This document shows positions 3,554 to 38,960 of a DNA stretch of 64,000 nucleotides, one piece after another. A model generated the notes under the pieces. That model was given only the letters and a program-made list of their open reading frames with translations, searched no databases and was not told the origin of the DNA. Made by a program: the position numbers and the translations under genes. This DNA comes from Alphaproteobacteria bacterium (lineage in GTDB: Bacteria; Pseudomonadota; Alphaproteobacteria; Paracaedibacterales; VGCI01). Within the stretch, counting starts at the first letter, position 1. Every line of letters begins with the position of its first letter. The stretch lies in NCBI GenBank assembly GCA_016869075.1, contig VGEY01000002.1, forward strand, positions 2,376 to 66,375, in the 5' to 3' direction.

Positions 3554-3653
3554 TTAATTAGAGTATACAAAATACGATATCCTTATGATAACATATAACT
3601 AGTAGCCCTTTTTGTTTATTTATGGGCTGGTCAATAAAGATGAGGAGACCGTT

Positions 3654-11897: not shown

Positions 11898-11970
11898 TGG
11901 AGCGGGCAAGGGGAATCAAACTCCCGTTGTAGCTTGGGAAGCTTCTGCTCTCCCATCGAGCTTGGCCCGC
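11898..11970 (-). pseudogene. degenerate tRNA-Gly(CCC)
   Basis: Minus strand reads GCGGGCCAAGCTCGATGGGAGAGCAGAAGCTTCCCAAGCTACAACGGGAGTTTGATTCCCCTTGCCCGCTCCA: Gly-type acceptor, CCC anticodon and encoded CCA, but U8>A, T-loop TTTGA and stem mismatches. Confidence 0.85.
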
Positions 11971-13317: not shown

Positions 13318-13392
13318 TTTTTCTCTCCAAATAAAATATAAAACAAAATTTTCCTTTTAAGGAAAAAATATTAAAACTAAGAATTGTCTAAT

Positions 13393-13422
13393 GAAAAAAA
13401 GAATAAGCGCTTAGCTGCGCTT
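13393..13422 (-). terminator. attenuator-like intrinsic terminator overlapping the leader ORF stop codon
   Basis: Minus strand AAGCGC-AGCTAA-GCGCTT then ATTCTTTTTTT. Confidence 0.6.
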
Positions 13423-13554
13423 GAGAAATTTAAAATGACGGTTGGGTTGGCAAGTAGACACAGGGAATGAAAATGCATTCTGCACGAAGGGATGCAGAAA
13501 GAAGCCATCATTGAGAAGTCTGTTTACATAGACAAACATAAAAACTCTTTTCAT
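13411..13554 (-). CDS. putative 47-aa leader peptide MKRVFMFVYVNRLLNDGFFLHPFVQNAFSFPVSTCQPNRHFKFLKRS
   Basis: Open frame translated by hand between a TTGACA hexamer and the permease; the stop codon lies in the terminator loop; alternative ATG at 13539. Confidence 0.55.
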   Translation of the reverse strand: MKRVFMFVYVNRLLNDGFFLHPFVQNAFSFPVSTCQPNRHFKFLKRS

Positions 13555-13580
13555 AAAAATTCACTTACACACTGAATAAA

Positions 13581-13609
13581 TATATGTACATTTATAAATG
13601 GACTGTCAA
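13581..13609 (-). promoter_or_regulatory. putative sigma-70 promoter for the leader/permease
   Basis: Perfect -35 TTGACA (13609-13604) followed by an AT-rich TACATATATT -10-like region. Confidence 0.4.
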
Positions 13610-13627
13610 GAATTTTTGCAGCCCAAA

Positions 13628-15457
13628 CTATCCTTTTTGTTCATCTTTTTCAACAAGATACTCAGAGATTTGTTGATCAAACCACCCCCCACGCCATCGA
13701 GAGCGTAAATTTCTTAATTGCAAAAATGCATCTTCTTTGCTGATCATATTAGTTTCCAACCGATGCGCAATATAATCAAACCGCGCAATTGCACGGACCT
13801 TAGAAGAAAGCGCCCGCTCCATAAGCTCTCCCAAAATTTGCAAACCTTCATCTTCTTTTCCCTGGTTAAGAAGCATTTTTGCGCGCGCAAGATTAAAGGT
13901 TTCCTTGGCACTTCTCTCCTGTGGTGAAGTTTCTCCCTCTAAGAAGGATGTAAGAGTTTCAATATCGTTTGCGGCAATCGCGGCCATTAAAATAAGGGAC
14001 ATCAATTGATTACGTAGAGGCTTCGGATAGCTTTGTAAAAGAGGCTTTGCCATTTGGAAGTGCGAACGCAGATGATTTTGTGGCTTGCAATGCAATCCTA
14101 GGCAAGAAGGATATTGAATTGCTTTTAATATCGACAACCATATCTGTACTTCAGGTTCTTCACGTACCTCTCTTAAAGATTGCTCTGCACCATAGTACCG
14201 ATGCAACAATAAGTTTGCGACCCCTTGCAAAGCTTTGAACACAGATAAATCAGCAATACTTGGGCGCATTTTGGCAAGATGAGTTAGATACCCCAATGCT
14301 TCATTAGCTTCACCCTGACTTAATAACAACCATGCCAATTCTAATTCGCCTGGCCCATGTTGGTCGTGAGGAAGATCTAATAATTCTTGGTTAATTTCTT
14401 CTTTTCTATTTTCCCAATCAAGATCTTGAGCTTGTGCAAAAAAACCCGTCGGCATTGCCCAGGTACGAACTTGCTCACGATCTTCTCGCCGACTGATGGC
14501 TAACCCGTCAGGATGTGTGATTTCTATCCCACCTGGAATGACCTTTACCATAAGATCATCCTTTATTGTTTGAATTCCTACTCCTTGGGGTGCCTCCATA
14601 ATTTTAAAATCAGGAAATTCCTGGCGCGATTCAATACCCCAGCCCACTCGATAGGAAGGAAAGACTACCCATCCATAGCCAGTACGTTGGTCTATGAAAT
14701 GAATTTCCTTTCCTAAAGAGCTGGCCTCAATAATTAATCTATGCACCTGAGATTGAGGAAACTCAATAGATGCCTGGTGAAAAAGGAGTTGAGGTTGAGG
14801 TTTAAAAATGATGCGCCATTTATTATCTTTATAAGCAACCTCAGGTGTGAGCTGATCTTCTACCGTCACTTGTAAAACTAACCCTTCTTGGGTGGGCAAA
14901 ACTTCAATATTTTTAAAACCTAAAGCAGAATGTTCTTCAAATGAAGGAAGCAAAGGATTTGCTTTCTCGTCAAAAACAATCCACCATTTGCTCCCTTCCT
15001 TTAAAACCGCTAAAGCAGAGTTGTTATTTTGCCAATCAAATATTAAGTTGGGTTCGCCTTTGTTTGGTTCTATGAGAATTTTCACGTCAGGTAGATTGCT
15101 ATCTTTTGCTTGGGCAATTTTCGAAAGAGACTCAAGAGCAATTGGTGTAGATATAAACCCTATATAAAAATTGTCGTGAGGCTTTGGTATAAGGAAGAAA
15201 GGAAGAAATGAATATTTTGTCTCAATACGGGTTTGCCCTCCAAAAATGATCGGGGCGCCATATCCCTTTTTCGCTTTGGTAGTCTTTAATTTTTTATGTT
15301 TTGGTCTCTTTTTTTGAGAAGAGTTTTTTACGGATTTAGCAAGTTTTTGATTGTGCTCTTGTCCCCAAGTAGAAAGCATACCTCCTGGAGTGAGGTAACT
15401 CCAAAATATACATCCCACGAGTACTCTTGTAAAATAGCGACCAAACGACATGAGCAT
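13628..15457 (-). CDS. hypothetical exported protein, beta-rich N-terminal half and TPR-like helical C-terminal half
   Basis: Hydrophobic N-terminus, Lys-rich linker, LIFDW...WWIVFD segment and TPR-like helices (ELAWLLLSQGEANEALGYL). Confidence 0.6.
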   Translation of the reverse strand: MLMSFGRYFTRVLVGCIFWSYLTPGGMLSTWGQEHNQKLAKSVKNSSQKKRPKHKKLKTTKAKKGYGAPIIFGGQTRIETKYSFLPFFLIPKPHDNFYIGFISTPIALESLSKIAQAKDSNLPDVKILIEPNKGEPNLIFDWQNNNSALAVLKEGSKWWIVFDEKANPLLPSFEEHSALGFKNIEVLPTQEGLVLQVTVEDQLTPEVAYKDNKWRIIFKPQPQLLFHQASIEFPQSQVHRLIIEASSLGKEIHFIDQRTGYGWVVFPSYRVGWGIESRQEFPDFKIMEAPQGVGIQTIKDDLMVKVIPGGIEITHPDGLAISRREDREQVRTWAMPTGFFAQAQDLDWENRKEEINQELLDLPHDQHGPGELELAWLLLSQGEANEALGYLTHLAKMRPSIADLSVFKALQGVANLLLHRYYGAEQSLREVREEPEVQIWLSILKAIQYPSCLGLHCKPQNHLRSHFQMAKPLLQSYPKPLRNQLMSLILMAAIAANDIETLTSFLEGETSPQERSAKETFNLARAKMLLNQGKEDEGLQILGELMERALSSKVRAIARFDYIAHRLETNMISKEDAFLQLRNLRSRWRGGWFDQQISEYLVEKDEQKG

Positions 15458-15501
15458 TTCATTTTTTTAATAAAACAGTTAAAACCTCACCATGGATGAA
15501 C

Positions 15502-16101
15502 TTACATCGACGTCAAGAGTGAGGTTGCAAAATCCCAATTGACCAAATGATTTAAGAAAGTATCCACGTAGTCTGGGCGTCTATTTTGAAAATCTAAATA
15601 ATAAGCATGTTCCCAAACGTCACATGTTAAGAGCGCTGTCGCACCATGAACCATGGGAAGATCCGCATTCGCCGTTTTCATAATCCGTAAATTTCCTTTT
15701 TCAGCAACTAGCCAAGCCCAGCCACTCCCAAATTGAGTAACAGCGGCTTGCTTGAAATCAGCAGCAAACTTCTCATAGGATCCAAAAGCCTGATCAATCA
15801 AGTCTTTCAAATCCCCTGTGGGAGCCCCACCTCCTTGCGGCTTCATGCAATTCCAAAAAAATGTATGGTTCCATACCTGAGCGGCATTGTTAAACACACC
15901 CATCTTCTCAGGATTTTTTGCTGTTAATTGAATAATTTCTTCCAGAGATTTATCTGCTAAATCAGTATTTTGAATGAGATTATTCAGGTTTGTTACATAA
16001 GCTTGATGATGTTTTCCATGATGAAATGAAAGTGTTTGTGCTGAAATGTGAGGCTCGAGTGCATTAAGTTCATAGGGAAGATTTGGTAGTGTATGAGGCA
16101 T
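15502..16101 (-). CDS. sodB: superoxide dismutase [Fe]
   Basis: HHGKHH, NNAAQVWNH, QFGSGWAW and DVWEHAYY; AAQ signature of the Fe type. Confidence 0.96.
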   Translation of the reverse strand: MPHTLPNLPYELNALEPHISAQTLSFHHGKHHQAYVTNLNNLIQNTDLADKSLEEIIQLTAKNPEKMGVFNNAAQVWNHTFFWNCMKPQGGGAPTGDLKDLIDQAFGSYEKFAADFKQAAVTQFGSGWAWLVAEKGNLRIMKTANADLPMVHGATALLTCDVWEHAYYLDFQNRRPDYVDTFLNHLVNWDFATSLLTSM

Positions 16102-16214
16102 GAATTGTTCTCCTTTATTTTGCTTTTAAGCATTATAAAGGAGAGCTAACGTTAAAGGTACCCCCTTCGTCAAGATGAATTTATAAGGGATAAGCCCTAA
16201 GTAATAATTTTCTT

Positions 16215-16985
16215 CTATCTCAATATTTTAGCGGAGTGAGGATTAGGAAGCGGACGCTTAATTATTTGGCTCAATTTCTCTGGGTGAGCTTTCATGTCCT
16301 TCCATGCTTCCAAATCTGGTAATTGATCTAACTTTGAGCGTTCAAGCCCTGTTGATTGCATTATGCTTTTCACCGCAGTTTCTCTTGTTGGTTTTCGACG
16401 ACCCATTTCTGCATTAAGTTTTACAATTTTATCTTGCCATTCTTTTAGGACCGTCTGTTCAGCGCTTAAAGAGAGTTTATCTCTCTGTGCCTTATTCATT
16501 TTCTCCGTTAGATCTTTCATTTTTTCAATAAGACTTTTCTTTTCCTTTTCCATTGTATTTATCTCACCAGATATTTTTTGATAAGTATAGACAACAGAAG
16601 AAACATCTGCTCCTCCACCCCCAACCGAGTCCCTTAGTTTTAAACCTCGTTCTTCTAGAAGAATAAGATCTAAGCCCCACGGAAATTGCTTTCCCTTTTC
16701 TAAAATTTCAGTAAGAGTTGGTGATGTGTTGTTCAAACGATCTAAGTTATAAACATTCTGCTCAAGAGGAGAAAGGACCGTCATATCTCCCGCACTTTTC
16801 TGTACTTTTCCCTTTACAACCTTTAAAGTTGCTTCCTCTTTTGGTGAAAGAGGCTGTCTTTTACTCAATTTACCATGAATAATTTCAAGAGCAGATGGAG
16901 TCCCAGAGCCCTGTGAAGCCAGGAGACTGCCTTGAAATCCCAATGTAGATATTCCTAACATAAGCAGAATCAAATAATCTTTCAT
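16215..16985 (-). CDS. hypothetical secreted coiled-coil protein
   Basis: Signal peptide ending SLLA; K/E-rich heptads in the middle; GGGAG RBS. Confidence 0.75.
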   Translation of the reverse strand: MKDYLILLMLGISTLGFQGSLLASQGSGTPSALEIIHGKLSKRQPLSPKEEATLKVVKGKVQKSAGDMTVLSPLEQNVYNLDRLNNTSPTLTEILEKGKQFPWGLDLILLEERGLKLRDSVGGGGADVSSVVYTYQKISGEINTMEKEKKSLIEKMKDLTEKMNKAQRDKLSLSAEQTVLKEWQDKIVKLNAEMGRRKPTRETAVKSIMQSTGLERSKLDQLPDLEAWKDMKAHPEKLSQIIKRPLPNPHSAKILR

Positions 16986-17146
16986 CGAAGCAAACTCCCG
17001 AATGTGTTCATTTATGATTTTAAGCTTAAGAAAATATTCTTAAAATTTGGTTATTATTTCATAAATTTTAAAGGAATAATATAAAGCTCCATTCAATAAA
17101 ACTCTTGCGGTACACCCCCTATTCCTCGTAAAACTATATCGAATAA

Positions 17147-18220
<1,074 letters not shown>

Positions 18221-18343
18221 AAAAGTGTTAAAACCCTCTTTTAAATACCCCCAGAGTTTTATATTATAAGAATGGTTTTGTTGTTACTAGGTATGATTAT
18301 AAATTATTGAAATTATGACACTTAACAAGGTTAACCAGCCTGC

Positions 18344-19231
18344 ATGGCAAAGATTAAGTCTTCTGAATTAAAATCTTTCTTTCTTCAACGACCATCCTTA
18401 AAGTATGTTATGGTCTCCCAAGTTCATAACCGACCTTCTCATGGATTTACCCACTTTCCCTTAGGGATGGTTTCTGTTCTCATTGGTGCATTGATTATCT
18501 TTACATTGTCGATTAGGGATAATAAAGCAGTTCAGCATCTTAACTCTTTGCTTTTGGATCTAACTTTTCCTCTCATAGACGGCATTACACAACCTTTTTC
18601 TGCCCTAGACTCCTGGAGCGACACATTTCGAACAAATAAAAGCTTGCGCGAAGAAGTAGCTTTTTTAAGAGAGGAAAATGAACATTTTCAATTTATGATC
18701 CAAGATTTGCGCCAACAGACACGTGACCAACATCAACTGCAACTTTTAACAAACGCACTCCCTGATACCCAAATTGAGCGCCTAACAGCACGTGTTGTTG
18801 GACATGTAAGTGATGGAATGAACACCCAGTTAACAATTAAGGCATCCGAGGAAAATGGAATACTTAAGGGGCAACCAGTCATTACGGCGGATGGAGTCCT
18901 TGGGCGTATCAGCGAGGTGGGGGGGCTTTCTTCCTCTAATGCACGCGTAATGCTTCTTACTGATCTATCTTCGCGTATCCCTGTAGAAATTGAATCAACA
19001 CACGATCATGGAATTATTTCGGGTCAAAATGGGCCTGAATTGCGGCTCATTCATTTAGAAAAATCTGTTAAAGTCAAAGTAGGTGATCGTCTTTTAACTT
19101 CCGGTTATGGCGGTATTTTTCCTCCTGGACTCCCCGTCGCAATTGTTACCCAAGTAACTGATGATACTATTATCGCACGTCCTTTCGTTAAAGAAACACC
19201 CACCTTTGTAACAGTTCTTTTTGGCCTTTAG
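18344..19231 (+). CDS. mreC: rod shape-determining protein MreC
   Basis: TM helix, coiled coil, VMLLTD.SSRIPV and LTSGYGGIFPPGLPV. Confidence 0.95.
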   Translation: MAKIKSSELKSFFLQRPSLKYVMVSQVHNRPSHGFTHFPLGMVSVLIGALIIFTLSIRDNKAVQHLNSLLLDLTFPLIDGITQPFSALDSWSDTFRTNKSLREEVAFLREENEHFQFMIQDLRQQTRDQHQLQLLTNALPDTQIERLTARVVGHVSDGMNTQLTIKASEENGILKGQPVITADGVLGRISEVGGLSSSNARVMLLTDLSSRIPVEIESTHDHGIISGQNGPELRLIHLEKSVKVKVGDRLLTSGYGGIFPPGLPVAIVTQVTDDTIIARPFVKETPTFVTVLFGL

Positions 19232-19282
19232 GTTTATGAGAATTGTCATCCTGATACACTTATTTAGTTGAGAGAGAAGTTT

Positions 19283-19792
19283 ATGATTGATGGCGACCAT
19301 TCAACCTCTAAAAAAGTTTGGAAACATCGACTTCTCATATTTATATTTTTGGTTTCCGTCGTTTGTTTAAACATTCTTCCAGTATGGCAAAGCCTTGGGG
19401 TACAGCCAGTTTTGCTTTTGATTGTTCTCTATCATTGCGCGCTATATAGGCCGGATCTTCTTTCTGTTGAGCAGCTCGTCTTAATTAGCCTCATTCTAGA
19501 TGGAATTTATGCCTATCCCTTGGGATTTTCTGCTGTTAGGTTGCTAACAGAATATACTCTCCTTCTCACACAAAGGAAAATTCTTGGTCACCAAAACTTC
19601 TTGTGGGTATGGGGGGGATTTTGCCTCTTTGCACTTATAGATGGTCTTCTCTATTCAATTCTTATCTCTTGTGTTAAATCTCAATGGACTGGGATTTTTC
19701 CCATTATTCCGAGTATTCTCCTAACCATTGGTTTATACCCTCTCTTAACATGGGCCCTAAACCGCATAATTATGAGACGCCTTTTCACGTGA
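19283..19792 (+). CDS. mreD: rod shape-determining protein MreD
   Basis: Polytopic membrane protein with YRPDLL and D...YPLG motifs, after mreC. Confidence 0.85.
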   Translation: MIDGDHSTSKKVWKHRLLIFIFLVSVVCLNILPVWQSLGVQPVLLLIVLYHCALYRPDLLSVEQLVLISLILDGIYAYPLGFSAVRLLTEYTLLLTQRKILGHQNFLWVWGGFCLFALIDGLLYSILISCVKSQWTGIFPIIPSILLTIGLYPLLTWALNRIIMRRLFT

Positions 19793-19809
19793 GTTTTATA
19801 ATTAAATAA

Positions 19810-21135
19810 CTATCTTTCTGTCATAGAATTGTCTATGGCACGGAGGAAAGGCTTCAGGAAGTAATTCAGCACAGACTTTTGGCCGGTGAGAATATCGACT
19901 TCAACTTGCATACCAGGCATAATTGCATAAAGCCTTCCTTTTTTAGCAAGAACATTTGATTTTGTTTGCAAGAGAACTCGATAGAAAGTTTGTTCTCGCT
20001 TGTCTGTAATAGTATCCGCGCTTATATGCTCAACAGTGGCTTCTAAACCTCCATATGTACTGAAGTCATAAGCGGTTACCTTTATTGTTGCAGTCATACC
20101 AGGACGTATAAAAGCAACATCTGATGGAGCAATTTGAGCCTCCACAATCAAAGTATCGTTTAAAGGCACTATGTCCAACAGAGCTTCGCCAGGCTGAACA
20201 ACGCCCCCAATTGTTCTTACTTTAATATCACGAATTGTCCCTGTAATTGGGGAACGAATTTCTGAACGTGCAACTCGATCTTGATCTGCTGTCTTTGCTC
20301 CTCTCACTTCTGCAAGTCTCCCTTCAATATCACGAAGTTCCTGTAAATCATCCGTACGATATCGAATAAGCACCTGGTCGAGTCGATCTTTAGCCTGTTT
20401 AACGGCTACCGATAGGCGCTTAAGGTTTACTTTTAAAACTCTTAACTGTGCTTTTTGATCAGAATAATCGCGCATAAGTTTAAGATAATCCATCTGTGAA
20501 TATATCTTGTTTTTTGCTAAAGGCGTAATGATTTTAACTTGCTCAGAAGCATATTCATACTGTTCTTTTACCTCATTCATTTTTTCTTTTATTTCATTCA
20601 TTTCTTGCCGCTTCATTTCATAATCTTTTCGAGCGATATTTAAATCATTTTGCTTCTTCAAAAGATTTGAAGCGAAGCGCACACTTTCTTCTTTTGCAAG
20701 ATTTGGGGCATTCATTAAAAGATCCGGACTGGGAGCAAAAGCTTGTTGATTATTAATTTGTGCCTGTAGCCGCTCAGCAGATGCAAGAAACCGATAGTAA
20801 TTTTCTAAACCTTGATAATATTTTGCTTGCGAAATCGTTGTGTCTAACCTGATAAGAATTTGACCAGGTGATACAATTTGATTATCTCGAACTAAAATCT
20901 CTTTGATAATTCCTCCTTCTAAATTGCTTATAGTTTGATTGTGTGTAGAGGAAATGATTTTACCTGTTCCTTTCGTTACTTCATGCAACTGTGAAAAGTG
21001 TGCCCAAATGAAGAAGGCGATAAAAAACATCAAAATAATTTTTTGTGCCAGGTAAGTTTTCTTGTGACCTACACGATAAAAGGCCGCCGCACGCGGGGGT
21101 AAAAATTCTAAGTCTTTTTCAGGAGTTTCACTCAT
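19810..21135 (-). CDS. HlyD-family type I secretion membrane fusion protein
   Basis: ISNLEGGII, IRSPITG, GGVVQPG, KVTAYDFSTYG and PGMQVEVDILTG. Confidence 0.96.
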   Translation of the reverse strand: MSETPEKDLEFLPPRAAAFYRVGHKKTYLAQKIILMFFIAFFIWAHFSQLHEVTKGTGKIISSTHNQTISNLEGGIIKEILVRDNQIVSPGQILIRLDTTISQAKYYQGLENYYRFLASAERLQAQINNQQAFAPSPDLLMNAPNLAKEESVRFASNLLKKQNDLNIARKDYEMKRQEMNEIKEKMNEVKEQYEYASEQVKIITPLAKNKIYSQMDYLKLMRDYSDQKAQLRVLKVNLKRLSVAVKQAKDRLDQVLIRYRTDDLQELRDIEGRLAEVRGAKTADQDRVARSEIRSPITGTIRDIKVRTIGGVVQPGEALLDIVPLNDTLIVEAQIAPSDVAFIRPGMTATIKVTAYDFSTYGGLEATVEHISADTITDKREQTFYRVLLQTKSNVLAKKGRLYAIMPGMQVEVDILTGQKSVLNYFLKPFLRAIDNSMTER

Positions 21136-23288: not shown

Positions 23289-23423
23289 AAAATACCCCAC
23301 AATACCTTTCTCTTCCATGAAACCACACAAAAAGTTTCAACTAGATTAATTTTAGAGAAAAAAATGTATAAAATTTATGTTAAAATGTTATTATTAAATT
23401 AAAGGCCAACTTGAGACTTTGAT

Positions 23424-25091: not shown

Positions 25092-25118
25092 GTTATAAAC
25101 TCACTATCTGAATAAAAT

Positions 25119-28244: not shown

Positions 28245-28248
28245 GTGG

Positions 28249-31077
28249 TTAATATCCCCATTCTTTGAGCCGCTCTAAATGGGCATATTCATGGTGATTT
28301 GGTATAATAAAAGAATTGGGACACGCATAGAAAGGCGTTTCCTTTGCCAAGAAATGTTCAAATAATCCTTCTACACCGTGCTTTGCAGCTTCTATTAACG
28401 CCTCAGCATTATCAAAACTCACACATTCTCCTACAGGAAACCTTCCTGTCATACGCCAATAGCAGAGCGCTTCTGTAATCAGGGGTGGCAAGGAAGAAAA
28501 ACCTCCTTCCCTTAAGATGAGTCCTTCCAATGAAAGTTGTGGGGCATACCCTTGAGTGACCTCTTTCTTCGTTGGTAAACTCCCCGTTTTATAATCAATA
28601 ATTCGCGCAAAGCCAGAGGACAAAATATCAATACGATCAGCTTTCGTTGTCAGCAGAATTGGACCATTGGAAGTGGGAATTTCAAGAGACCCCTCGACTT
28701 CTGTTTTTATTTCTTGAATCAAGGGCTTTTCCTCACTCATTTTAGATAAAAACCATTCCCCTATGCGTTGAAATTGAGACCACCAAAATGCTTGTGCACG
28801 TACGTCCCGTAGCAAATGACCAAACGCTTTTTCTCCTAAATCTTCAAATAATTTCATTGCGCCTGGCGCATGAGGGTCCACACCTGATTTCACAAACGCG
28901 TCAAGCACTTCATGAATAGCTTGCCCACGCTTTAAGGGTGATAAATCTGCCTCAACTGGATCCAAGGGATATAGCTTTAAAATAGTTTTTGCATAAACAC
29001 TGTAAGGATCACGAAGGAGCGTTTCGACTGCTGTTACTGACAATCGACAGGGCCGCGCCTTAAGAGGGGGACAAGGCGACGGAGGTAAAAACGGTGAAGA
29101 TTTCATTGGCTGATCAAGTTGAGAAGCCCATGCGCCCCAAGGCTGTGAAGAAGTAAACTCCTTTTTTGCGGTTGCTAATAATGCAGCCATACGTTGCCAC
29201 CATCGACTTGGTAAGGTCGGGGTGCCATCACGCTTTAAAGATCTCGTTAAATAAACTCTAGGTGCTGAAAAAGCTGCACAAAAATCATGAGCTGACAAAC
29301 CAATTTTACGCTCCAAGGGAGGTAATCCAAATCCTTCGCGCATGGAACGACTGAGCCAAGGATCATCTTGAGGTATACTTGGCCAAACGTCTTCATTTAA
29401 CCCCCCTAGAATAACAACATTTGCCTGCAGCAATCGTGCTTCCAATGTCCCCAATATCATAAGCTGTGACCCAATTCCTTCTTTTTCTCGAACAACTTCT
29501 TCTGCCATAAGATTCCGCAAAAATGCTGGATAATCTTTAGCTGTCAAAGATGGAAATGTATCTGCGTATTCGAGAAGGGTTTGGAAAAGTGAAAAGGCTA
29601 CTTGACCATCATCCTCACTCCATAATAAGGAAACTCCTTCATTTGAATTTTCATTATCCCCAACAAGGTTCTCAGCAACAGCAATATGCGTTTTTAAAAA
29701 TTCAGAAAAAGAATGATGTCTTCCATCATTCAGGACCCTCAAGGGAGCGCATCGTTCACTACCAGGAAAATTAAGATCTTGGTGTGATCCAACTGTTTGT
29801 CCTCGTATAACTTCTCGTTCAAATTGCCGTGTTTGGTTTAAATGAAATCCTCTTAATTTACCTTTCATATAGAGAGGATGTTTTAAGAGAGCAAGTAGAT
29901 CGGTTGGCTTCATAGAGTCTACCAAAAGACTTGTTAAAAGCAGAAACCTCCCAACAACAGATTGTTTTAAGGGAAAACCACTTGATACATTTGCATGCAA
30001 TTCCCATCTTTTTAAAGCAGTTTTTACCCGCCATGCCAGTTCACGGTCGGGTGTGACCAAGGCTATCGTATTGCTTTCTTTTTCCAACTCATACCGCATG
30101 ATGAGAGCAATTTGGTTAGCTTCTTCTTCAATGGATGAAGCCTCAATGGCCTCTATTGAGGACAAAACTTCTTCTGCAATTTCCTGTGATATTGACCAAT
30201 TTTCTTGAGGTGATGCGGTCATAGCAGATGACAAAAAAATAGAACGAGAGGGTATATTTTTAATATCAGACGGCCATAACTGTGGAATTCCCAGTTTTTG
30301 TATAAGATGCATCAATGTATGCTGTGGGTGTGTTGCTGGTAAGGTTACGTGGTCACTTTCAAAAAGGGACATATCAACATAAGGTAAAACAACACAGCCT
30401 TTGTTCATTTGCAATATTGCCCCCATGAGAGCAGCAGTTGCAGGACGTGTTCCAGTTGTCCCTGCCAATATAACGGGATCCGTTGGATGCCAATATGAAG
30501 CCACTTGTTCTAGAATTAATCTTTTGCGCGCAGCAGGTTCCATAAAGCCGGCTTGAGATAAAATAGAGGGCCATTGATCTGTCAGAATTTTAAGAAAGTC
30601 AAGAGTGAGTTGCCAATGCGCTGCATAATCCTCCCCCACCAAGGTCTTTAAATTTTCTAAATTCAACTTGGAAGTTTCAACTTCATCAACAAAGTTCATG
30701 AGCTCTTGAGTTAAACGAACGGCACGTGCAGGATTTCCTATACCACCTTCTTTTTGCTCTTCAAATTTTAATACTAGATGACTTAAAAGACCTAATCTTT
30801 GCCAATTTGGAAGTGAAGGTGGAAGAATTTCTGGTGGCACATATCCGGGCAAATCCATTCCTTCCTCTATGTCTGCCAAAGCAATAATGCGAGGTAAAAC
30901 ACTTGTTGATTTTCTTGCTGTAAATGCTTGGTGTAACGCCAAGCACCCACGTCGTGTTGGTAAAATAACAACGGAACGAGCAAGACTTAATGGATCACTC
31001 ACAGCCTCATTTAACAACCCTTCAACAAGAGTTGATAAGAAAGGAACACCACTTGGTATTGCATATAGTCCTTTCAT
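28249..31077 (-). CDS. addB: double-strand break repair protein AddB
   Basis: LPTRR, ALVTPDRELA, GTLEARL, LSVT.VE..RDPY and KADRID...IIDYKTG; precedes addA. Confidence 0.96.
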   Translation of the reverse strand: MKGLYAIPSGVPFLSTLVEGLLNEAVSDPLSLARSVVILPTRRGCLALHQAFTARKSTSVLPRIIALADIEEGMDLPGYVPPEILPPSLPNWQRLGLLSHLVLKFEEQKEGGIGNPARAVRLTQELMNFVDEVETSKLNLENLKTLVGEDYAAHWQLTLDFLKILTDQWPSILSQAGFMEPAARKRLILEQVASYWHPTDPVILAGTTGTRPATAALMGAILQMNKGCVVLPYVDMSLFESDHVTLPATHPQHTLMHLIQKLGIPQLWPSDIKNIPSRSIFLSSAMTASPQENWSISQEIAEEVLSSIEAIEASSIEEEANQIALIMRYELEKESNTIALVTPDRELAWRVKTALKRWELHANVSSGFPLKQSVVGRFLLLTSLLVDSMKPTDLLALLKHPLYMKGKLRGFHLNQTRQFEREVIRGQTVGSHQDLNFPGSERCAPLRVLNDGRHHSFSEFLKTHIAVAENLVGDNENSNEGVSLLWSEDDGQVAFSLFQTLLEYADTFPSLTAKDYPAFLRNLMAEEVVREKEGIGSQLMILGTLEARLLQANVVILGGLNEDVWPSIPQDDPWLSRSMREGFGLPPLERKIGLSAHDFCAAFSAPRVYLTRSLKRDGTPTLPSRWWQRMAALLATAKKEFTSSQPWGAWASQLDQPMKSSPFLPPSPCPPLKARPCRLSVTAVETLLRDPYSVYAKTILKLYPLDPVEADLSPLKRGQAIHEVLDAFVKSGVDPHAPGAMKLFEDLGEKAFGHLLRDVRAQAFWWSQFQRIGEWFLSKMSEEKPLIQEIKTEVEGSLEIPTSNGPILLTTKADRIDILSSGFARIIDYKTGSLPTKKEVTQGYAPQLSLEGLILREGGFSSLPPLITEALCYWRMTGRFPVGECVSFDNAEALIEAAKHGVEGLFEHFLAKETPFYACPNSFIIPNHHEYAHLERLKEWGY

Positions 31078-31114
31078 GAATGTCAAACCATTTCCTTAGA
31101 CAAAAAGAAAGCCG

Positions 31115-31801: not shown

Positions 31802-31833
31802 AGTACTTCAAAAAATTAAACACTCTTATTTTT

Positions 31834-32556
31834 TTATAAACTCTTCACGCGCTTATCTGATGAAATTGCTTTTAAACTTTCTAGGGTTCCAATATCTCCC
31901 CACTCCCCATCAAAGACTAAACCATAGAGACGCCCATTGCTTTCTGCTTTGTGAAAGAAAGGAACTATGGAGAATGGTTGAATCTTTTCACCCTCTAAGA
32001 GGCGTGGATGGAGAATTCGAATACCTGTAAATATATAGGGCCTCATTTCTTCCTTGCCCCTATATTTTAATTTACCACTCGCTGTGAGAAAATAATCCCC
32101 CACACCAGAATACCCCATGGCTTTTTCTCGTGGCATGAGAAGGAGCAATGCATCCATTTTTTCAGAATCCCACATTTCATTAAGATGTTGTAAACAAGAG
32201 TGCTGAGCATCACGCCACCAAATATCCGCATTTAATACAAAAAATGGTTCTCCACTAAAATGAGGAAGAGCCTGAGCAATGCCCCCGCCTGTGTCTAGAA
32301 GAATGGGCTCATGGGAAATATAAATTTCTGGTTTTCTTCGTCTCTGAAGGTGTGCCTGAATTTGATCTGCAAGATGGTGGGTATTCACAACGCATCTTTG
32401 AACACCATACGCATCTATTTTATCGAGGGCATGATCCAACATTGTTTTCCCGCCGATTTTAATCAAAGGTTTGGGCGTATGGTCCGTTAAAGGCCTGAGC
32501 CTTCTCCCTTCTCCTGCAGCGAGAATCATAGCTTGAATAATGGAATTATTGCTCAT
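31834..32556 (-). CDS. murU: nucleotidyltransferase (MurU-like MurNAc-1-P uridylyltransferase)
   Basis: AMILAAGEGRRLRPLT..PKPL, LDTGGG and W.DIGT; conserved position upstream of addB. Confidence 0.82.
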   Translation of the reverse strand: MSNNSIIQAMILAAGEGRRLRPLTDHTPKPLIKIGGKTMLDHALDKIDAYGVQRCVVNTHHLADQIQAHLQRRRKPEIYISHEPILLDTGGGIAQALPHFSGEPFFVLNADIWWRDAQHSCLQHLNEMWDSEKMDALLLLMPREKAMGYSGVGDYFLTASGKLKYRGKEEMRPYIFTGIRILHPRLLEGEKIQPFSIVPFFHKAESNGRLYGLVFDGEWGDIGTLESLKAISSDKRVKSL

Positions 32557-33233
32557 TTATCATAAACACTTTTAATGAAATTGAGATAATTTTCGATTGG
32601 CTCGAGACCCACTTTTTGACGGTCAAGATCTACATCTTTAAGTGTACCCTCAAAAGGTAAAAGTTTCCACTTATTGCCTTTTTGCTCGACTTGAGTTCCA
32701 TATTTTTGCTTAAACCCTAGGTTCTGGTATTTCAGGGCAACACGATCATAAAGATATGCATAATTCTTCACATCCGTTTCTTTCAGGGGGACAAGGTGCT
32801 GTAAAATAAAAAGGCAACTTGCTTGGAAGTGTGGATTGTGATCTGCGTGTTGCACCAACAGCCACGCCTGGTTATCTGCTTCGTTACCAAATTTAGTAAG
32901 TGTAATCCACCCATAAATAGCAAGAATTTTTTTAAGATGCTGAGTGTGGAATCGGTCCATTTTCTCAAGAAGATTTTTAAATTTAGCATTCATTTTAAAA
33001 GCAATCGCTTCTTTCCTGATCATTTGATCTAGAGTATACATAATCTTCAGTTGATCTTTAACTTGCTCAATATTTCCTATAGATTTTTCATCCAATTGCT
33101 GAAAAGAGTTCTCAACCTGTTTTTCCAACACAGGAAGCTTGCTCTCAATATCAGAACAAAAGCCTTTGAGTGAAAATCCAAAGATAATTAAAAATCTATA
33201 GATATATTTAGCTATCTGATTATTCATTTTCAT
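32553..33233 (-). CDS. DUF6624-like domain protein with signal peptide
   Basis: DQMIR, YGW, AWLLVQHAD, YAYLYDR and QKYGTQ motifs. Confidence 0.8.
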   Translation of the reverse strand: MKMNNQIAKYIYRFLIIFGFSLKGFCSDIESKLPVLEKQVENSFQQLDEKSIGNIEQVKDQLKIMYTLDQMIRKEAIAFKMNAKFKNLLEKMDRFHTQHLKKILAIYGWITLTKFGNEADNQAWLLVQHADHNPHFQASCLFILQHLVPLKETDVKNYAYLYDRVALKYQNLGFKQKYGTQVEQKGNKWKLLPFEGTLKDVDLDRQKVGLEPIENYLNFIKSVYDK

Positions 33234-34303
33234 TCTTTTTGAGCAATGACAGTTGGAAAAATGTTTCGCTTATCGTTAATGAATTTAATATTCTTAAATC
33301 CAGCTTCTTCTAACTGTTGACGGGTTAATGACTCAGTGCGTGTTGCTTGCCATTTCGCCTGTAAAATATCTACAAAAATTGCTTTTTGCATGAGGGCATC
33401 ATCCCTATTAAAATTTATCCATGGTGATGGTTGCGCTGTACCTGGTGGTGGCGTCAGAAAACTTGTTACTAAGATTCCTCCAGGTTTTAAAGCTTTGAAG
33501 AATGATTTATACAACCCTACAACTTTACGATCATCAGCTTCATAAAAATTAAGACCGTTACTTGTAATTAAATCATAAGAGTCTGAAGTATCTAGGTGCC
33601 AAGCACTCTTTTTTAGAAATGATACTTTCGCATTCGGCCTATATTTTAATATATTTTCTTTCGCGAGAATAAGAGATTCTTGATCTATATCTACTCCTAT
33701 GAGTTCAACATTTTCAAGATGAGTATAATCCAACCCTAACAAGGAATCCATCAAACCACATGGAATGGAAGCAAGCTTCATATTAGAGCGCAAACGACTT
33801 TGTATTTCCCTTTGAAAAATTTTATAACGCTCTTGCGAAGCAGTAAATGATGGAGACCTATTAATAAGCCAGTCTTCTAAAGGATTTTCTAGTTTTTTTT
33901 GAGGCCCATGTATAAGCCAATATGCGGTCCAGTAGCCGTTGATTCCACCATTTGCTAACAAGAACCTTCCGAGTTCAAACTCGGTCATTTGATGCAAAAT
34001 TTCTATTTCCTTCTCCAGGGATAAAATTAAGTTGGGCGCTTTTCTTAAGCGATTCTCAATGGATTGAAGATTAAAAGTACCTTTAACTTCATGTGTAATG
34101 ATTTTTTCATTTGATTCTAATTCATCAGATGACATAGAACTCCCTTTTGCTTCCTGATCCCTTGTATTAATATTTCTCACCTGACTTGAAGAGGTCCCCC
34201 CTTGTTTTTCTAAAATAACAAATTTTGCGCTCTTATTTGCCCATAACCATAGGGAGAGACTAACGACGATAAGACACCAGAATGAAAACTTCACAATTCT
34301 CAC
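33230..34303 (-). CDS. class I SAM-dependent methyltransferase with N-terminal membrane anchor
   Basis: ASIPCG, GVDID, DLITSNG and ALKPGGILV motifs. Confidence 0.87.
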   Translation of the reverse strand: MRIVKFSFWCLIVVSLSLWLWANKSAKFVILEKQGGTSSSQVRNINTRDQEAKGSSMSSDELESNEKIITHEVKGTFNLQSIENRLRKAPNLILSLEKEIEILHQMTEFELGRFLLANGGINGYWTAYWLIHGPQKKLENPLEDWLINRSPSFTASQERYKIFQREIQSRLRSNMKLASIPCGLMDSLLGLDYTHLENVELIGVDIDQESLILAKENILKYRPNAKVSFLKKSAWHLDTSDSYDLITSNGLNFYEADDRKVVGLYKSFFKALKPGGILVTSFLTPPPGTAQPSPWINFNRDDALMQKAIFVDILQAKWQATRTESLTRQQLEEAGFKNIKFINDKRNIFPTVIAQKE

Positions 34304-34337
34304 ATTCGCTCCCTTTTTGCTTATCTAGGATTGCAGC

Positions 34338-35231
34338 TTATTTGTTAAGGATTGCAGCCATAGGATAGCTAAAAAATAGGAAATGACACAAGTTCACAAT
34401 AAAATGAACGAGCATGGCTGCTTCCAACCTATTGGTCAAATGATAAGCATATCCATAAAACATGCCAGCAATTGTTGCAAAAGCAATAAAAGTTATTCCA
34501 CCTTTTAAATGACCAACCAAGAGAACACCAAAGAGCAAAGAAGTAACTGTTATGGGAATAAATGCTGGAATCTTACGCCCCTTAGAAATTTGCATTAAAT
34601 AATTTTGGATTATTCCCCGAAAAATCACTTCTTCTGCAAAACAAACAAAAAGCATATTATTAAAAATCCATAACCCCGTTGAATCTGGAATTTTAAAATC
34701 ATAATGCACATAGCCTGTGTAGAGTGCTATTGGGATGAGAACTGAAATGCACAAACCTGAAAGAAGGAAAATGCGTAAGAACGCCCCTTTTCCAAGAGGA
34801 AGGGTTTGATTAAAAATAAGGGAACTTGTCACAGCAAGAATAAGAGCTGCCGCAGTTTTATCGAAATTCAGATACATTGTAAAAGGCGCAGAAGATAAAG
34901 ATAAATACACATTATTTATGGCGCGTAAGTTATAAAATCCAGGAATAAGATGATTCGCAAAACCTAAAGCAATTGCAACAATGATGATAAGACGTAAAGA
35001 AGCAAGCCATCCTTTTGATGAAAAGTAGCACCAATGAAGTTCACAAATTCCCCAAAATATTCCTATGGCTAAGAGCCCCATCCAATTTATAACACCCCAG
35101 GCAAGGGCAAGAACCAATTGAGCCGCAATAAGGCTTTTAAGCAGGCGTTGGGAGCGAAAAATGAACATCCCGGTTATGAGAAAACCTAAAGTAAGATAGG
35201 GAAAGAGGGCAGAAACAGATTGAATATTCAT
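34338..35231 (-). CDS. CPBP (CAAX protease / Abi) family intramembrane metalloprotease
   Basis: EEVIFRG, FG...H and HFIVN motifs; multiple TM segments. Confidence 0.92.
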   Translation of the reverse strand: MNIQSVSALFPYLTLGFLITGMFIFRSQRLLKSLIAAQLVLALAWGVINWMGLLAIGIFWGICELHWCYFSSKGWLASLRLIIIVAIALGFANHLIPGFYNLRAINNVYLSLSSAPFTMYLNFDKTAAALILAVTSSLIFNQTLPLGKGAFLRIFLLSGLCISVLIPIALYTGYVHYDFKIPDSTGLWIFNNMLFVCFAEEVIFRGIIQNYLMQISKGRKIPAFIPITVTSLLFGVLLVGHLKGGITFIAFATIAGMFYGYAYHLTNRLEAAMLVHFIVNLCHFLFFSYPMAAILNK

Positions 35232-35495
35232 AAGCGCTCCATTAGTTTGCTATAAACTTTTCTATTCATACCTGGTTAGATTCTTTAAAACACCCAAAGA
35301 CTGACACTTGTTGGGTGCCTCGTCAACCCCTTAAAGATTTAGACGTTTTTGATGACCTTTTTTCACTCCCAGGAAGTTCCTTATAGATAGCTTAAATACT
35401 TAAGTTTTTTTTCTTGATTTAGGACGTGTCAAAATGCTTCTATACCACATAAACATTCAAGGTTCAGAACGACTCCTAAATAGGGATTATTAGAA

Positions 35496-37388
35496 ATGGC
35501 ATTAAATATAGAAACGTTTGATAACTGCACCGGGGGTAATGTCCTCTACAAAGTTCTTGCACATCCCCAAACAGCTCTGAATTTAAGAACTCTTTTTCAA
35601 CAGCTGAGTTCCTCTAAAATTGCTCTCTATGATCCTTTAGGAATTTTAGAAGCCTTTCAACAATTTTATCTTCCTGAGCTCCAACTCTTAAAGATTACTC
35701 ATATTTACGTCCAAAAATTTGAGCATATTGGGAAAGACTATCCATTGTTTGGGAATATCACAACCCGCCCCCTAACTGAACTTTCCGAAAATCAAGACGA
35801 CGTTTTATTTATTCTTTCCTTTGAGAAAGACTTGATGCTCTCTGCACTGACACCCTACCTTCCTAAAGGATTAAAGGTTTACTCCCTCGACGATATTCGC
35901 TTAGAGGTCTTAGCGGGTGAGAGAAATTATCTCACTCCCCTAAATTTTGCAACAAACTTTGCTTTTTTTAGAGAGCAAGATGGATTTCACACGCGCCTTA
36001 TTACGGCTAATTATTGGCATAGGTATGGTGCTAAAGACGTTAAGCTTTCTTGTACCCTTTTTGGAGAAGAGGGACAAGTTTTAGCTGAATGGGAGCATCC
36101 ATTAAATGCCAGCGAACATACCATCGTGCTCGATAGTCAAGAGATTAAAAAGAAATTTAATTTAAGCCCTTTTACAGGACAGCTTTTTATACACGTGATA
36201 GGTGCTAAGGGTCACGACATTGTGAAATATGCACTTGAAACATACACAGATGACCACACACACGTTTCTTGCACCCACGACGCCAATTCATGGCCTGCAG
36301 ATTCATATGCTGGGCTCCCGGCACCGCATCAAAATGAACAAGTTTATTTTTGGATCCAAAATAGCCACCCAGTTCCCATTCCTGCCAATTCCATTGGTAT
36401 AAATGTAATGGGCAAAAAGGATGTCGTTTGGCTTGATCGCCAAATAGCTCCTTTTGCAACTTATCGACTCAATGTTGCAGATCTATTACCCAATGTAAGG
36501 TGGCCTCAACAAATTGAAGTTCAAGCCGGTAAATACGTTGTGCGCCCACGCTATGAAATTATCTGTAAATCCACAAATAATCAGCGCATAGCTCATATTA
36601 ATGTTCAAAGAAATGATCTTCAGCCAACTATTACACCCGCACATTTAAAGCCCTTATTTGGGAAAAATTATATCCTTCCTGCTCCTATTTTGCCTCAATC
36701 TGATTTTCAATCATTGGTCCTTCCAACCCCCATGTGTACACAGCAAACACACCTTCCCTTAAAGGTTTTTGTCTATGATGCCACCGGACAAGCAATTGCG
36801 GAGCATTCCTTGGGAGTATTGGAAAGAGACCATGCAACGGTTGTAGATTGTGGGCAATGGTCTTTACCTAGCGGTTTTGGTCATATTGAATTGGCCTATG
36901 ATGAGGGTCAGAATATATCAGTTGACGGATGGTTACATGGCCTTTTCCGGTATGAGAAAGGACCTCAGAAAGCTGAAACAAGCTTTGGTGCTCATATTTT
37001 TAATACTCCTCTTGTTTATAAAAACGAGCCTCAAAGTTATGCTGGAAGTCCTCCAGGTTTGCGGACGCGCCTGTTCCTTGCCTTATCAGATTCTCAATCA
37101 GATACAACATGCTTCTTGATTTATCCATCCTCCACCCAATGGCATCCCTATTCAGAAACAAACTTTGTTCTTCACGATCATCAAGGCAAAGAAATTTCTA
37201 GTCATTCAGTAAAAATACCTTGCAGTGGGTCTTTTCTCTTTTCTTATCATAAGACATTTCCCGAAGAATTGCGCACAAAAGCAAAGGGGGGATATATCAT
37301 TATTCGTGATACGACCTGTCGCCTTTTCGGCTATCATGGCACCTGGGGAAATCAAGACTTTAGCTTTGATCATATGTTTGGATTTTAA
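35496..37388 (+). CDS. conserved hypothetical protein (630 aa)
   Basis: Long intact ORF; repeated beta-rich units; His-containing motifs; no recognised family. Confidence 0.85.
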   Translation: MALNIETFDNCTGGNVLYKVLAHPQTALNLRTLFQQLSSSKIALYDPLGILEAFQQFYLPELQLLKITHIYVQKFEHIGKDYPLFGNITTRPLTELSENQDDVLFILSFEKDLMLSALTPYLPKGLKVYSLDDIRLEVLAGERNYLTPLNFATNFAFFREQDGFHTRLITANYWHRYGAKDVKLSCTLFGEEGQVLAEWEHPLNASEHTIVLDSQEIKKKFNLSPFTGQLFIHVIGAKGHDIVKYALETYTDDHTHVSCTHDANSWPADSYAGLPAPHQNEQVYFWIQNSHPVPIPANSIGINVMGKKDVVWLDRQIAPFATYRLNVADLLPNVRWPQQIEVQAGKYVVRPRYEIICKSTNNQRIAHINVQRNDLQPTITPAHLKPLFGKNYILPAPILPQSDFQSLVLPTPMCTQQTHLPLKVFVYDATGQAIAEHSLGVLERDHATVVDCGQWSLPSGFGHIELAYDEGQNISVDGWLHGLFRYEKGPQKAETSFGAHIFNTPLVYKNEPQSYAGSPPGLRTRLFLALSDSQSDTTCFLIYPSSTQWHPYSETNFVLHDHQGKEISSHSVKIPCSGSFLFSYHKTFPEELRTKAKGGYIIIRDTTCRLFGYHGTWGNQDFSFDHMFGF

Positions 37389-37405
37389 TCATATTTGTCT
37401 TTGCT

Positions 37406-37436
37406 AAACCTCTCCTTGATAAAAAGGAGAGGTTTT
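37406..37436. terminator. bidirectional intrinsic terminator
   Basis: 12-bp stem AAACCTCTCCTT/AAGGAGAGGTTT between convergent genes. Confidence 0.8.
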
Positions 37437-37453
37437 TACAAAGAGGAAAGAAT

Positions 37454-38728
37454 TTAGGTCTTCTTCTTTTTAGTCTTCTGATAAGCCTGAATAAATTTTA
37501 TTGCCCCCAAAGAAACAACCCCCGCACCTGTTAGATAAAAAGCCGGTACCATGATGGAGCCAGTCTTGTTAATGAGGTACGTAATGAGCATCGGTGCGGT
37601 TCCTCCAAAGAGCGGACCACTGATATTCGTGGTAATCGCAATGGCAGAAAACCGAATTGATGTTGGGTAGGCCTCTACCATCATGGCTGGCGTTGGACCG
37701 AAGTAACCTCCAGCAGCAATGGCAAAAAGGAGTTGCGCTAAAAAGATACTCATTAAGCTGCTTGTGGTATTGATAATATTAAACAGAGGAATTGTTCCGA
37801 TTATAAAAATGAGCGCAGCACCAATCATCACAGGCTTACGTCCAATTTTATCAGAGAGCCATGCTCCCAGAACTGTAAAGACACATACTGCGATCAAATT
37901 AAGGGTATTTATGGTAAAGGCAGCCTCTTCTGCCAAATGAAGTTGCTTTGTTAAGTATGTTGGCATGTAAGCAAAGAGCATATAAAAGCTGACATCATGT
38001 AACATGACAGCCAAAACAACAATAAAGAGCATTCTACCCTGTTGTGCAAAAACTTGTGTGACGGGATGTTTTGATACTTTTCCAGACTTTTGAATTCCCA
38101 CGTATTCAGGAGATTCTGGAATTCTTGCACGTAAGTAATAACCGATGAAGCAAATAAAAATACCGAGTAAGAAGGGCAATCGCCATCCCCACGTATTTAA
38201 ATCAAGCTCTCCAAGAGTGTATGAAAAAAGCGTTGCTGTAGCTGAGCCTAATAAGATTCCTATTAGACAACTTGTAACCGCAAAACTACCAATCAGCCCA
38301 CGATGTTTAGGATCTGAATGTTCTGTTGTAAAGGTAATGGATCCTCCATAATTTCCGCCCATGGAAAACCCTTGTAAGATACGCATTACAATGAGCAAGA
38401 TAGAGGCCCAGACGCCAATTTCTTCATAGGTTGGTAAAAGACCTATAATAGCTGTGGGAATCGCCATCAGTAAGATAGTTAACACGAGTGCAGATTTGCG
38501 GCCCCACTTGTCCCCAATATGACCGAAAACAATACCGCCCAGAGGTCTAAAAATAAAGCCAACAGCAAAAACACCAAATGCTTTGATCAATTCAGTAGTT
38601 TCATCTGTAGATGGAAAAAAAAGCTTTCCAAAAACAGGTGCAAAATAGGCAAACAAGATAAAATCGTACCATTCAAACAAGTTCCCCATCATGCTGGTAA
38701 CAACTGTCCGAAACAAACTTTTTTTCAT
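37454..38728 (-). CDS. MFS transporter, metabolite:H+ symporter (ProP-like)
   Basis: GNLFEWYDF, RPLGG..FGHIGDKWGRK, RILQGFSMGG, WGWRLPF and ESP motifs. Confidence 0.94.
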   Translation of the reverse strand: MKKSLFRTVVTSMMGNLFEWYDFILFAYFAPVFGKLFFPSTDETTELIKAFGVFAVGFIFRPLGGIVFGHIGDKWGRKSALVLTILLMAIPTAIIGLLPTYEEIGVWASILLIVMRILQGFSMGGNYGGSITFTTEHSDPKHRGLIGSFAVTSCLIGILLGSATATLFSYTLGELDLNTWGWRLPFLLGIFICFIGYYLRARIPESPEYVGIQKSGKVSKHPVTQVFAQQGRMLFIVVLAVMLHDVSFYMLFAYMPTYLTKQLHLAEEAAFTINTLNLIAVCVFTVLGAWLSDKIGRKPVMIGAALIFIIGTIPLFNIINTTSSLMSIFLAQLLFAIAAGGYFGPTPAMMVEAYPTSIRFSAIAITTNISGPLFGGTAPMLITYLINKTGSIMVPAFYLTGAGVVSLGAIKFIQAYQKTKKKKT

Positions 38729-38809
38729 AACGTACTCCATATAGAAATTTCACTTAAAAAGTAAAATTTAATTCTAGTTTATAATAAGTTTTACATATGT
38801 ATAGGGTTT

Positions 38810-38840
38810 AAAAAAAGATAAAATGTCGACATCAGTCGAC
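38810..38840 (-). terminator. attenuator-like hairpin overlapping the leader ORF stop codon
   Basis: Minus strand GTCGAC-TGAT-GTCGAC then ATTTTATCTTTTTTT. Confidence 0.55.
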
Positions 38841-38888
38841 GAGTCGAAGTGAAAGGAGGAATGAAAAAAGAGAAACGTAGTAAACCAT
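38832..38888 (-). CDS. putative 18-aa leader peptide MVYYVSLFSFLLSLRLVD
   Basis: Short ORF about 100 nt upstream of the MFS gene; TGA stop is in the hairpin loop; weak AAGAG RBS. Confidence 0.4.
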   Translation of the reverse strand: MVYYVSLFSFLLSLRLVD

Positions 38889-38960
38889 TAAAATCTCTTT
38901 ACACTATTATCTGGTTGATCGGTAACATAAAGGTTGAATAAATGTCCATTAATTTTTTTA

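Follow-up and report, generated by a model that had tools for sequence, protein, structure and literature searches.

In a 64,000-nucleotide (nt) stretch of an alphaproteobacterial genome (assembly GCA_016869075.1, contig VGEY01000002.1, positions 2,376 to 66,375; hereafter, the window), two transporter genes of unrelated families, APC and MFS, are each preceded by a small uORF (upstream open reading frame) that ends inside a GC-rich hairpin. Little nutrient-responsive regulation is usually expected to survive in host-dependent bacteria that have small genomes, and the question raised by this locus is what such leaders might sense and whether both answer to one signal. A first-pass annotation of the DNA had seen in them a common translation-coupled attenuation system for amino acid import, tied together by the motif GTGTAA-N4-ATTTT-N-ATG. 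Our analysis showed that the uORF-hairpin architecture exceeds chance and is conserved in relatives, and the attenuation part of the earlier proposal was well supported by that conservation; the common GTGTAA regulon was not. The two leaders are best read as separate sensors, one for Lys/Arg and one for Leu, that share an architecture, since their regulatory codons differ. The elements concerned are listed below, with Shine-Dalgarno abbreviated as SD and amino acids as aa.

12010..13317, minus strand: APC-family permease, AdiC/PotE/CadB-like; best profile match PRK10644, below its cut-off
13323-13328, minus strand: SD-like GGAGAG of the APC permease
13349..13366, minus strand: second, weaker hairpin in the APC leader tail; comparable hairpins seen by eye in genus orthologues
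13394..13400, minus strand: T7 tract of the APC leader, at the onset of the G-poor tail (C-T7, 13401-13394)
13405..13422, minus strand: 6-bp GC-rich hairpin of the APC leader, with the uORF stop inside the loop
13417..13431, minus strand: putative Lys/Arg regulatory codons (KFLKR), entering the 5' arm of the hairpin
13411..13554, minus strand: uORF of the APC leader, 47 aa, C-terminus KFLKRS
13552..13570, minus strand: first copy of GTGTAA-N4-ATTTT-N-ATG, not conserved
13604..13609, minus strand: candidate -35 hexamer TTGACA of the APC leader, with a candidate -10 at 13581-13586
37454..38725, minus strand: MFS metabolite:H+ symporter (MHS, ProP-like); TIGR00883, E 1.7e-117, below cut-off
38740, minus strand: alternative ATG of the MFS gene
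38735-38738, minus strand: SD-like GGAG of the MFS gene
38748-38766, minus strand: second hairpin in the MFS leader tail
38810..38816, minus strand: T7 tract of the MFS leader in a pyrimidine-rich, G-poor tail (C-T7, 38817-38810)
38825..38840, minus strand: 6-bp hairpin of the MFS leader, with the uORF stop inside the loop; compensatory changes in orthologues
38841..38858, minus strand: putative Leu regulatory codons (LLSLRL), abutting the stem
38832..38888, minus strand: uORF of the MFS leader, 18 aa, C-terminus LLSLRLVD
38886..38904, minus strand: second copy of GTGTAA-N4-ATTTT-N-ATG; orthologues keep only GAGA/GGGA and an AT-rich spacer
38943..38948, minus strand: candidate -35 hexamer TGGACA of the MFS leader

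Both stems comprise 6 bp with four G-C pairs each, and both hairpins were the minimum free energy structure (z -2.1 for APC, -2.8 for MFS) and passed a terminator-like scan. As the first-pass annotation had described, both uORFs stop inside the loop of a 6-bp GC-rich hairpin followed by C-T7 and contain an in-frame FSF, and the distance that it gave as about 95-105 nt from stop to transporter start was measured as 93 nt (APC) and 106 nt (MFS) between the end of the stop and the ATG. A strict scan of the genome (1.55 Mb, 78% complete) for uORFs whose end lies in a GC hairpin followed by a pyrimidine tail returned 4 of 1336 called genes: those of the two window leaders, a BrnQ-like carrier and ftsK. 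Three of the four matches fell among the 71 genes with at least eight predicted transmembrane segments. A relaxed scan added an SstT-like DAACS symporter, and 3 of 40 transporter-like regions matched.

For each transporter, the 30 best loci were collected from 40 relatives, our own genome being counted, and one fixed rule was applied. Leaders were detected at 11/30 APC, 13/30 MFS, 19/30 BrnQ and 14/30 DAACS loci. All 13 MFS positives fell among the 21 loci with at least 59% identity and none among the 9 distant loci; by eye, a uORF was also present in four genus leaders that the rule missed, three of APC and one of MFS. MFS paralogues gave 0/80 positives under the same rule, and DAACS paralogues gave 11/40, consisting of a Thr-rich group of eight, one Ser-rich leader and two spurious matches (L212, L239) that were dropped before the codon, folding and position counts. 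L104 also lies outside the positional profile, L034 was excluded from the MFS alignment, and L071 and L117 were excluded from the other alignments. The uORF-hairpin design was retained across Holosporales relatives, although the peptides agree only in their 3-6 C-terminal residues and range from about 12 to 55 aa. K(F/S)LKRS closes 7/7 genus APC leaders behind a variable N-terminal part, and MFS uORF orthologues end in LSLRLLG, LALRLVG or LRLGG-x-C-RH. In 12 aligned MFS leaders the Leu codons hold CT constant while the third base varies, which indicates that this frame is translated. The MFS stem carries two-sided changes in 4/6 pairs, and its covariation (0.361 versus 0.163 +/- 0.042) was reached in 0/500 shuffles. 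We are nearly certain that the leaders are conserved translated regulatory elements.

What they sense is suggested by their codons. The seven codons ending at the 5' arm were compared with background in 66 leaders, which are related and hence not independent. The K+R fraction was 0.45 in APC leaders (background 0.14), L was 0.49 in MFS leaders (0.12), I+V was 0.57 in BrnQ leaders (0.14), and T was 0.55 in DAACS-B leaders (0.05), while DAACS-A leaders combined S (0.36), T (0.25) and A (0.18) against backgrounds of 0.09, 0.05 and 0.04. This enrichment, 3- to 11-fold and family-specific, is of the kind found in classical attenuators. The last cognate codon begins 1-9 nt before the loop in 66/66 leaders, and cognate frequency peaks 2-5 codons before the loop, reaching 1.00 at -2 in APC and BrnQ leaders and, in MFS leaders, 1.00 at -5 and 0.92 at -3. 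The uORF stop shifts up to 33 nt beyond the loop in some leaders, and the cognate codons hold their position. Synonymous choice was biased toward CUA/CUC/CUU for Leu (43/47), UCN for Ser (30/30) and CGA for Arg (9/10), a bias that would be expected where particular isoacceptors are sensed (PMC1183508). Taken together with their placement, these codons make it highly likely that the leaders sense through them.

The nearest named families suggest a substrate independently only for the BrnQ, SstT-like and AdiC-like proteins, and for these the codons agree. Our APC permease aligns with AdiC at E 1e-60 and retains N22, S26, W202 and E208, with W293 replaced by Tyr, positions that we take to serve substrate binding in AdiC. 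Inferring transporter substrates from leaders is an established approach, and on the leader alone the MFS (MHS, ProP-like) protein is predicted to be a leucine importer.

Several leaders of other carriers may be noted here. A BrnQ-like carrier with an Ile/Val leader lies at 723-1877 of locus L061 (G000 C5), and a second AdiC-like APC permease (2550-3875) follows about 670 nt downstream on the same strand without a leader of its own. In L084 (G037), an Ile/Val-type BrnQ leader has been displaced by an insertion to about 250 nt from its gene. The DAACS paralogue of L104 has an Ala-rich leader ending in TAGAAA (near 2689-2752, minus strand) where its relatives are Ser/Thr-rich, a possible change of specificity.

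How could so small an element act? We consider it likely, although well short of assured, that each leader is a minimal ribosome-mediated transcription attenuator that would turn its importer on when the cognate amino acid is scarce, a reading drawn from sequence and folding. With charged tRNA plentiful, the ribosome would complete the uORF and depart, the hairpin would close, and transcription would end in the pyrimidine tail, possibly by intrinsic termination at the two T7 copies of the window and probably through Rho where T-runs are short. If the tRNA is uncharged, the ribosome would stall on the last cognate codons and cover the 5' arm and loop, and RNA polymerase would read through. Downstream of the codon being read, about 12 nt lie under the ribosome (PMC4833913), so that one stalled at -2 to -5 could cover the 5' arm. 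Folding of the 66 leaders predicted that the hairpin persists when a ribosome occupies the upstream region in the model (mean P 0.90-0.94 per family); the value of 0 for the "stalled" state arises by construction and is no evidence. No antiterminator, the competing hairpin of classical attenuators, was predicted, nor was switching of the ribosome-binding site (RBS) by a stalled ribosome, and direct masking remains as the proposed mechanism. As modelled, the design is leader-peptide attenuation in its working, yet it departs from the classical form in lacking that competing hairpin.

Rho probably contributes to termination in relatives, given the short T-runs, the C-rich, G-poor tail and the presence of rho in 5/5 relatives tested. 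At the other end of the leaders, a TTGACA-like hexamer stands 34-39 nt before the in-frame start in 38/66 leaders versus 221/5478 intergenic ATGs (4%), far above background, which suggests that many of the uORFs are leaderless. By family, the hexamer was found in 17/19 BrnQ, 10/15 DAACS-A, 8/13 MFS, 2/8 DAACS-B and 1/11 APC leaders. The two uORFs of the window lie 55-60 nt from the hexamer and would have short 5' leaders. A strict sigma-70 scan called neither candidate -35 of the window; TTGACA/TTGACT recurs at a comparable spot in 6 same-genus APC leaders, and TAGACA/TGGACA/TTGACG does so in the genus MFS-leader orthologues. Upstream of the MFS leader, a queuosine-precursor transporter gene (TIGR00697, 38961-39677, minus strand) ends 12 nt before the candidate -35, and the sequence there differs in other genus genomes.

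Several points weigh against attenuation by masking. A ribosome that has reached the stop codon would likewise sit over the hairpin, and the proposed polarity, on when starved, hinges on release kinetics. The longest T-run in the 20 nt after the stem is 1-5 in most relatives, poor for intrinsic termination, and Rho was not found in our own assembly (78% complete). C exceeds G 3- to 6-fold in the 40-nt tail, yet low G belonged to the detection rule, so the composition is partly circular. The covariation test on the MFS stem ignores relatedness, and 2/12 rows of that alignment are out of register. The relaxed genome scan stayed near shuffled background overall (13/678 regions versus 5-12 in 15 shuffles), the 3/40 transporter-like regions excepted. 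A similar-looking leader, that of Streptomyces ilvB, did not respond to codon substitutions (PMC1262725). Two predictions set beforehand also went astray. Aromatic permeases were expected to have leaders with aromatic codons, but 0/30 loci had such a leader; AGCS permeases were expected to have Ala/Gly codons in theirs but carried Lys/Arg codons instead.

That last result led back to the APC leader. The fixed rule was passed by 9/18 AGCS loci, whose uORFs all close in Lys/Arg (LKRSAR, for instance), and a Lys/Arg-directed search found a uORF in 17/17 AGCS loci examined (one incomplete and one duplicate locus excluded; one uORF requires a TTG start and one continues to the gene). The AGCS assignment was above the TIGR00835 cut-off in 4/4 proteins scanned. 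The core CTC AAG CGC AGC is common to AGCS leaders and the APC leaders of Finniella, and at locus L352/L363 the stop-in-loop hairpin is the same as in the window. In a hand-compiled table of 41 genomes, the Lys/Arg leader stood on an APC gene in 15, on an AGCS gene in 14 and on both in none. The leader common to two unrelated transporters is therefore that of APC and AGCS across genomes, rather than of the APC-MFS pair in the window. Most simply, both permeases would import Lys/Arg; alternatively, the leader may sense something besides its transporter's substrate.

Among the rival explanations, the most resistant reverses the polarity, as in pyrBI-type coupling, which offers a precedent. A fast ribosome near RNA polymerase would block the hairpin, one lagging at upstream cognate codons would let it close, and the transporter would be made when its substrate is available. 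Cognate runs that reach 8-10 codons upstream of the loop, beyond masking range, in BrnQ, DAACS-A and MFS leaders speak for this arrangement, as does the stop in the loop, which places the terminating ribosome on the hairpin. The most invariant cognate codons, however, lie within masking range, where a stall would prevent termination, and cognate codons further upstream are all but missing from the APC and DAACS-B leaders. We regard this polarity as unlikely.

Somewhat less probable still is control of transporter translation, in which a stalled ribosome would free the 3' arm and unmask the RBS in the style of mycobacterial poly-Cys leaders, or the hairpin would set mRNA stability. Leaderless-looking uORFs and, in some leaders, a second hairpin over or near the SD sequence would fit, but accessibility of the transporter start barely shifted with the 5' arm masked (family means 0.41-0.49 versus 0.41-0.45 unmasked, 66 leaders). 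Second tail hairpins occur in genus APC, MFS and BrnQ leaders, and their sequence differs between genomes.

Improbable to a slightly greater degree is an arrest peptide that senses a free amino acid or polyamine in the ribosome and shields a Rho site, as TnaC and SpeFL do (PMC12360218). The short invariant C-termini (LKRS, LRLLG, TSA) and a stop beside a C-rich, G-poor tail recall such peptides. Against this, the N-terminal parts are free in sequence and length, the conserved sequence expected of a TnaC or SpeFL peptide is confined here to the few C-terminal residues, the five families differ only in the repeated amino acid, and the cognate codons stay put where the stop moves past the loop.

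The weakest explanation is a single regulon in which GTGTAA-N4-ATTTT would be the site of a protein or RNA regulator of both transporters: both exact copies in the genome precede uORFs of this design and their pairwise chance is low, but a pattern fixed only after both copies had been seen, and lacking in same-genus orthologues as well as in this genome's own BrnQ and DAACS leaders, makes this very improbable. The copies lie where the first-pass annotation had placed them, with identical spacing, and they are the only two in the 1.55-Mb genome, against an expectation of 0.05 from window shuffles for a pattern derived from the very copies counted. Before the ATG they agree in 11/16 bases, and a random intergenic ATG pair shares at least 11/16 with a probability of 0.0012, before allowing for the choice of pairs or start codons. 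Even with 3 mismatches allowed, the motif was found in 0/12 orthologous leaders (6 genomes of the same genus), and the BrnQ and SstT-like leaders of our own genome share only 0 and 3 of the 11 bases. What recurs before genus uORF starts is GGA/GAGA with an AT-rich spacer, an ordinary weak RBS. FSF was likewise not kept in orthologous leader peptides. GTGTAA as a regulon site and FSF as a common peptide signal were both rejected; no conserved common site of the kind that marks a transcription factor regulon was found, the sharing of GTGTAA is probably coincidence, and the motif would have no role in the proposed mechanism. At the presumed start site of genus APC leaders (L002-L007) stands a short first ORF, e.g., MNTLKKWIF, which some genomes fuse in frame to the main uORF and others keep apart from it; in the window (13586-13552, minus strand) it is reduced to a GTG three-codon remnant overlapping GTGTAA.

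Attenuation by masking can be set beside known systems. Like classical attenuators (Escherichia coli trpL, hisL, thrL, leuL and ilvL; Corynebacterium glutamicum ilvBNC), the leaders have a uORF with cognate codons, a GC-rich hairpin and codon bias, and the two window copies also have a U-rich tail (PMC1183508, PMC11857589). In classical attenuators, however, pause, antiterminator and terminator hairpins compete, the control codons stand well before the terminator, and biosynthetic operons are served, whereas here one hairpin of 4-9 bp holds or abuts the stop, the control codons enter its 5' arm, and the targets are importers. A cognate Ile/Val/Leu run overlapping a candidate terminator is shared with actinobacterial ilvB leaders, whose mode of regulation was left unclear (PMC1262725), the C. 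glutamicum case being modelled later with three hairpins (PMC11857589). Mycobacterial cys leaders likewise have a cognate run near the stop and incomplete attenuator parts, with no terminator and Rho suggested (PMC1262725). These actinobacterial examples belong to another phylum, differ in sequence and concern biosynthetic genes with one amino acid group per report, whereas our leaders join at least five specificities to one geometry across five transporter families. The mycobacterial poly-Cys "ribulon" (bioRxiv 10.1101/834739) resembles them in having a single-amino-acid run at several loci, in sensory ORFs that are leaderless, as many of our uORFs appear to be, but poly-Cys attenuators free a downstream RBS and all sense Cys; here no RBS switch is predicted and the amino acid differs per locus. 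The uORF stop of tnaC, speFL, mgtL and cruR (PMC12360218) likewise adjoins a C-rich, G-poor stretch, ahead of genes for uptake or catabolism, but these systems depend on ligand-induced arrest peptides or larger RNA rearrangements, and our peptides are unconserved beyond the cognate codons. An attenuator before a permease has a precedent in lysQ of Lactococcus lactis (PMC4833913), and a distant analogy is offered by the Arg-sensing uORF of a Toxoplasma transporter (PMC8370653).

The literature searched, which lacked most subscription papers, gave no account of these leaders. Vitreschak et al. reportedly surveyed proteobacterial attenuators in 2004, and that survey could hold similar designs. 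In the accessible text of a 2025 Holosporales review, term counts gave no occurrence of "attenuat", "leader" or "riboswitch" (PMC11909080).

Candidatus Finniella, placed in Holosporales by NCBI, has two records that carry the same MFS leader as the same-genus loci. The Leu-leader pattern matched 19 times across 185,579 species genomes, 4 times before the MHS orthologue and 15 times in unrelated contexts, and a promoter-anchored pattern gave 8 matches across the order, 5 of them leaders already known. BrnQ homologues (E up to 1e-60) occurred in 1/400 wider genomes and sodium:solute symporters in 1/50 genomes, in both cases with no leader seen, and the Lys/Arg pattern hit 18 loci in metagenome contigs, none a leader. 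Of 30 same-class genomes, 7 had an Ile/Leu/Val-rich small ORF at ilvB, and by eye none of the 30 ilvB loci had the single-hairpin geometry. Rfam at gathering score found one weak tRNA in the window and no leader, T-box or riboswitch family; at E up to 1, ten leader loci gave tRNAs and sub-threshold chance matches only.

Directly downstream of the APC gene lies a decaying tRNA-Gly(CCC) (11901-11970, minus strand; Rfam 30.5 bits, missed by ARAGORN), with about 9 substitutions and a 1-nt deletion relative to copies that are intact at the equivalent position of L002 and L003. Elsewhere, a region before the gene of a 455-aa membrane protein (G000 C5, ~28480-28700, plus strand) presumably resembles a thiamine pyrophosphate (TPP) riboswitch, and in L063 (~290-550, plus strand) a candidate TTG-start uORF with three Cys codons precedes a Bcr/CflA efflux MFS gene and has its stop in a small hairpin.

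Holosporales-type bacteria live as symbionts of protists and rely on the host for their amino acids (PMC11909080). We tentatively suggest, at a little under even odds, that Holosporales run a modular, ribosome-read nutrient code, in which each major importer would have its own single-hairpin, often leaderless and antiterminator-free masking sensor, the modules being portable and the leaders naming the substrates of orphan carriers. Portability, if true, would be seen in the same Lys/Arg leader standing before APC in some families and before the unrelated AGCS in others. The leaders would then assign leucine to a ProP-like MFS protein, lysine/arginine to an "alanine/glycine" AGCS carrier, and Ser/Thr, Thr or Ala to importers among the DAACS paralogues. 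Leaders this small offer a direct test of whether an attenuator works with one hairpin and no antiterminator, and they make specific, testable predictions of what unannotated transporters carry, including a possible branch of AGCS for basic amino acids. They may also show which amino acids of the host are limiting for these symbionts.

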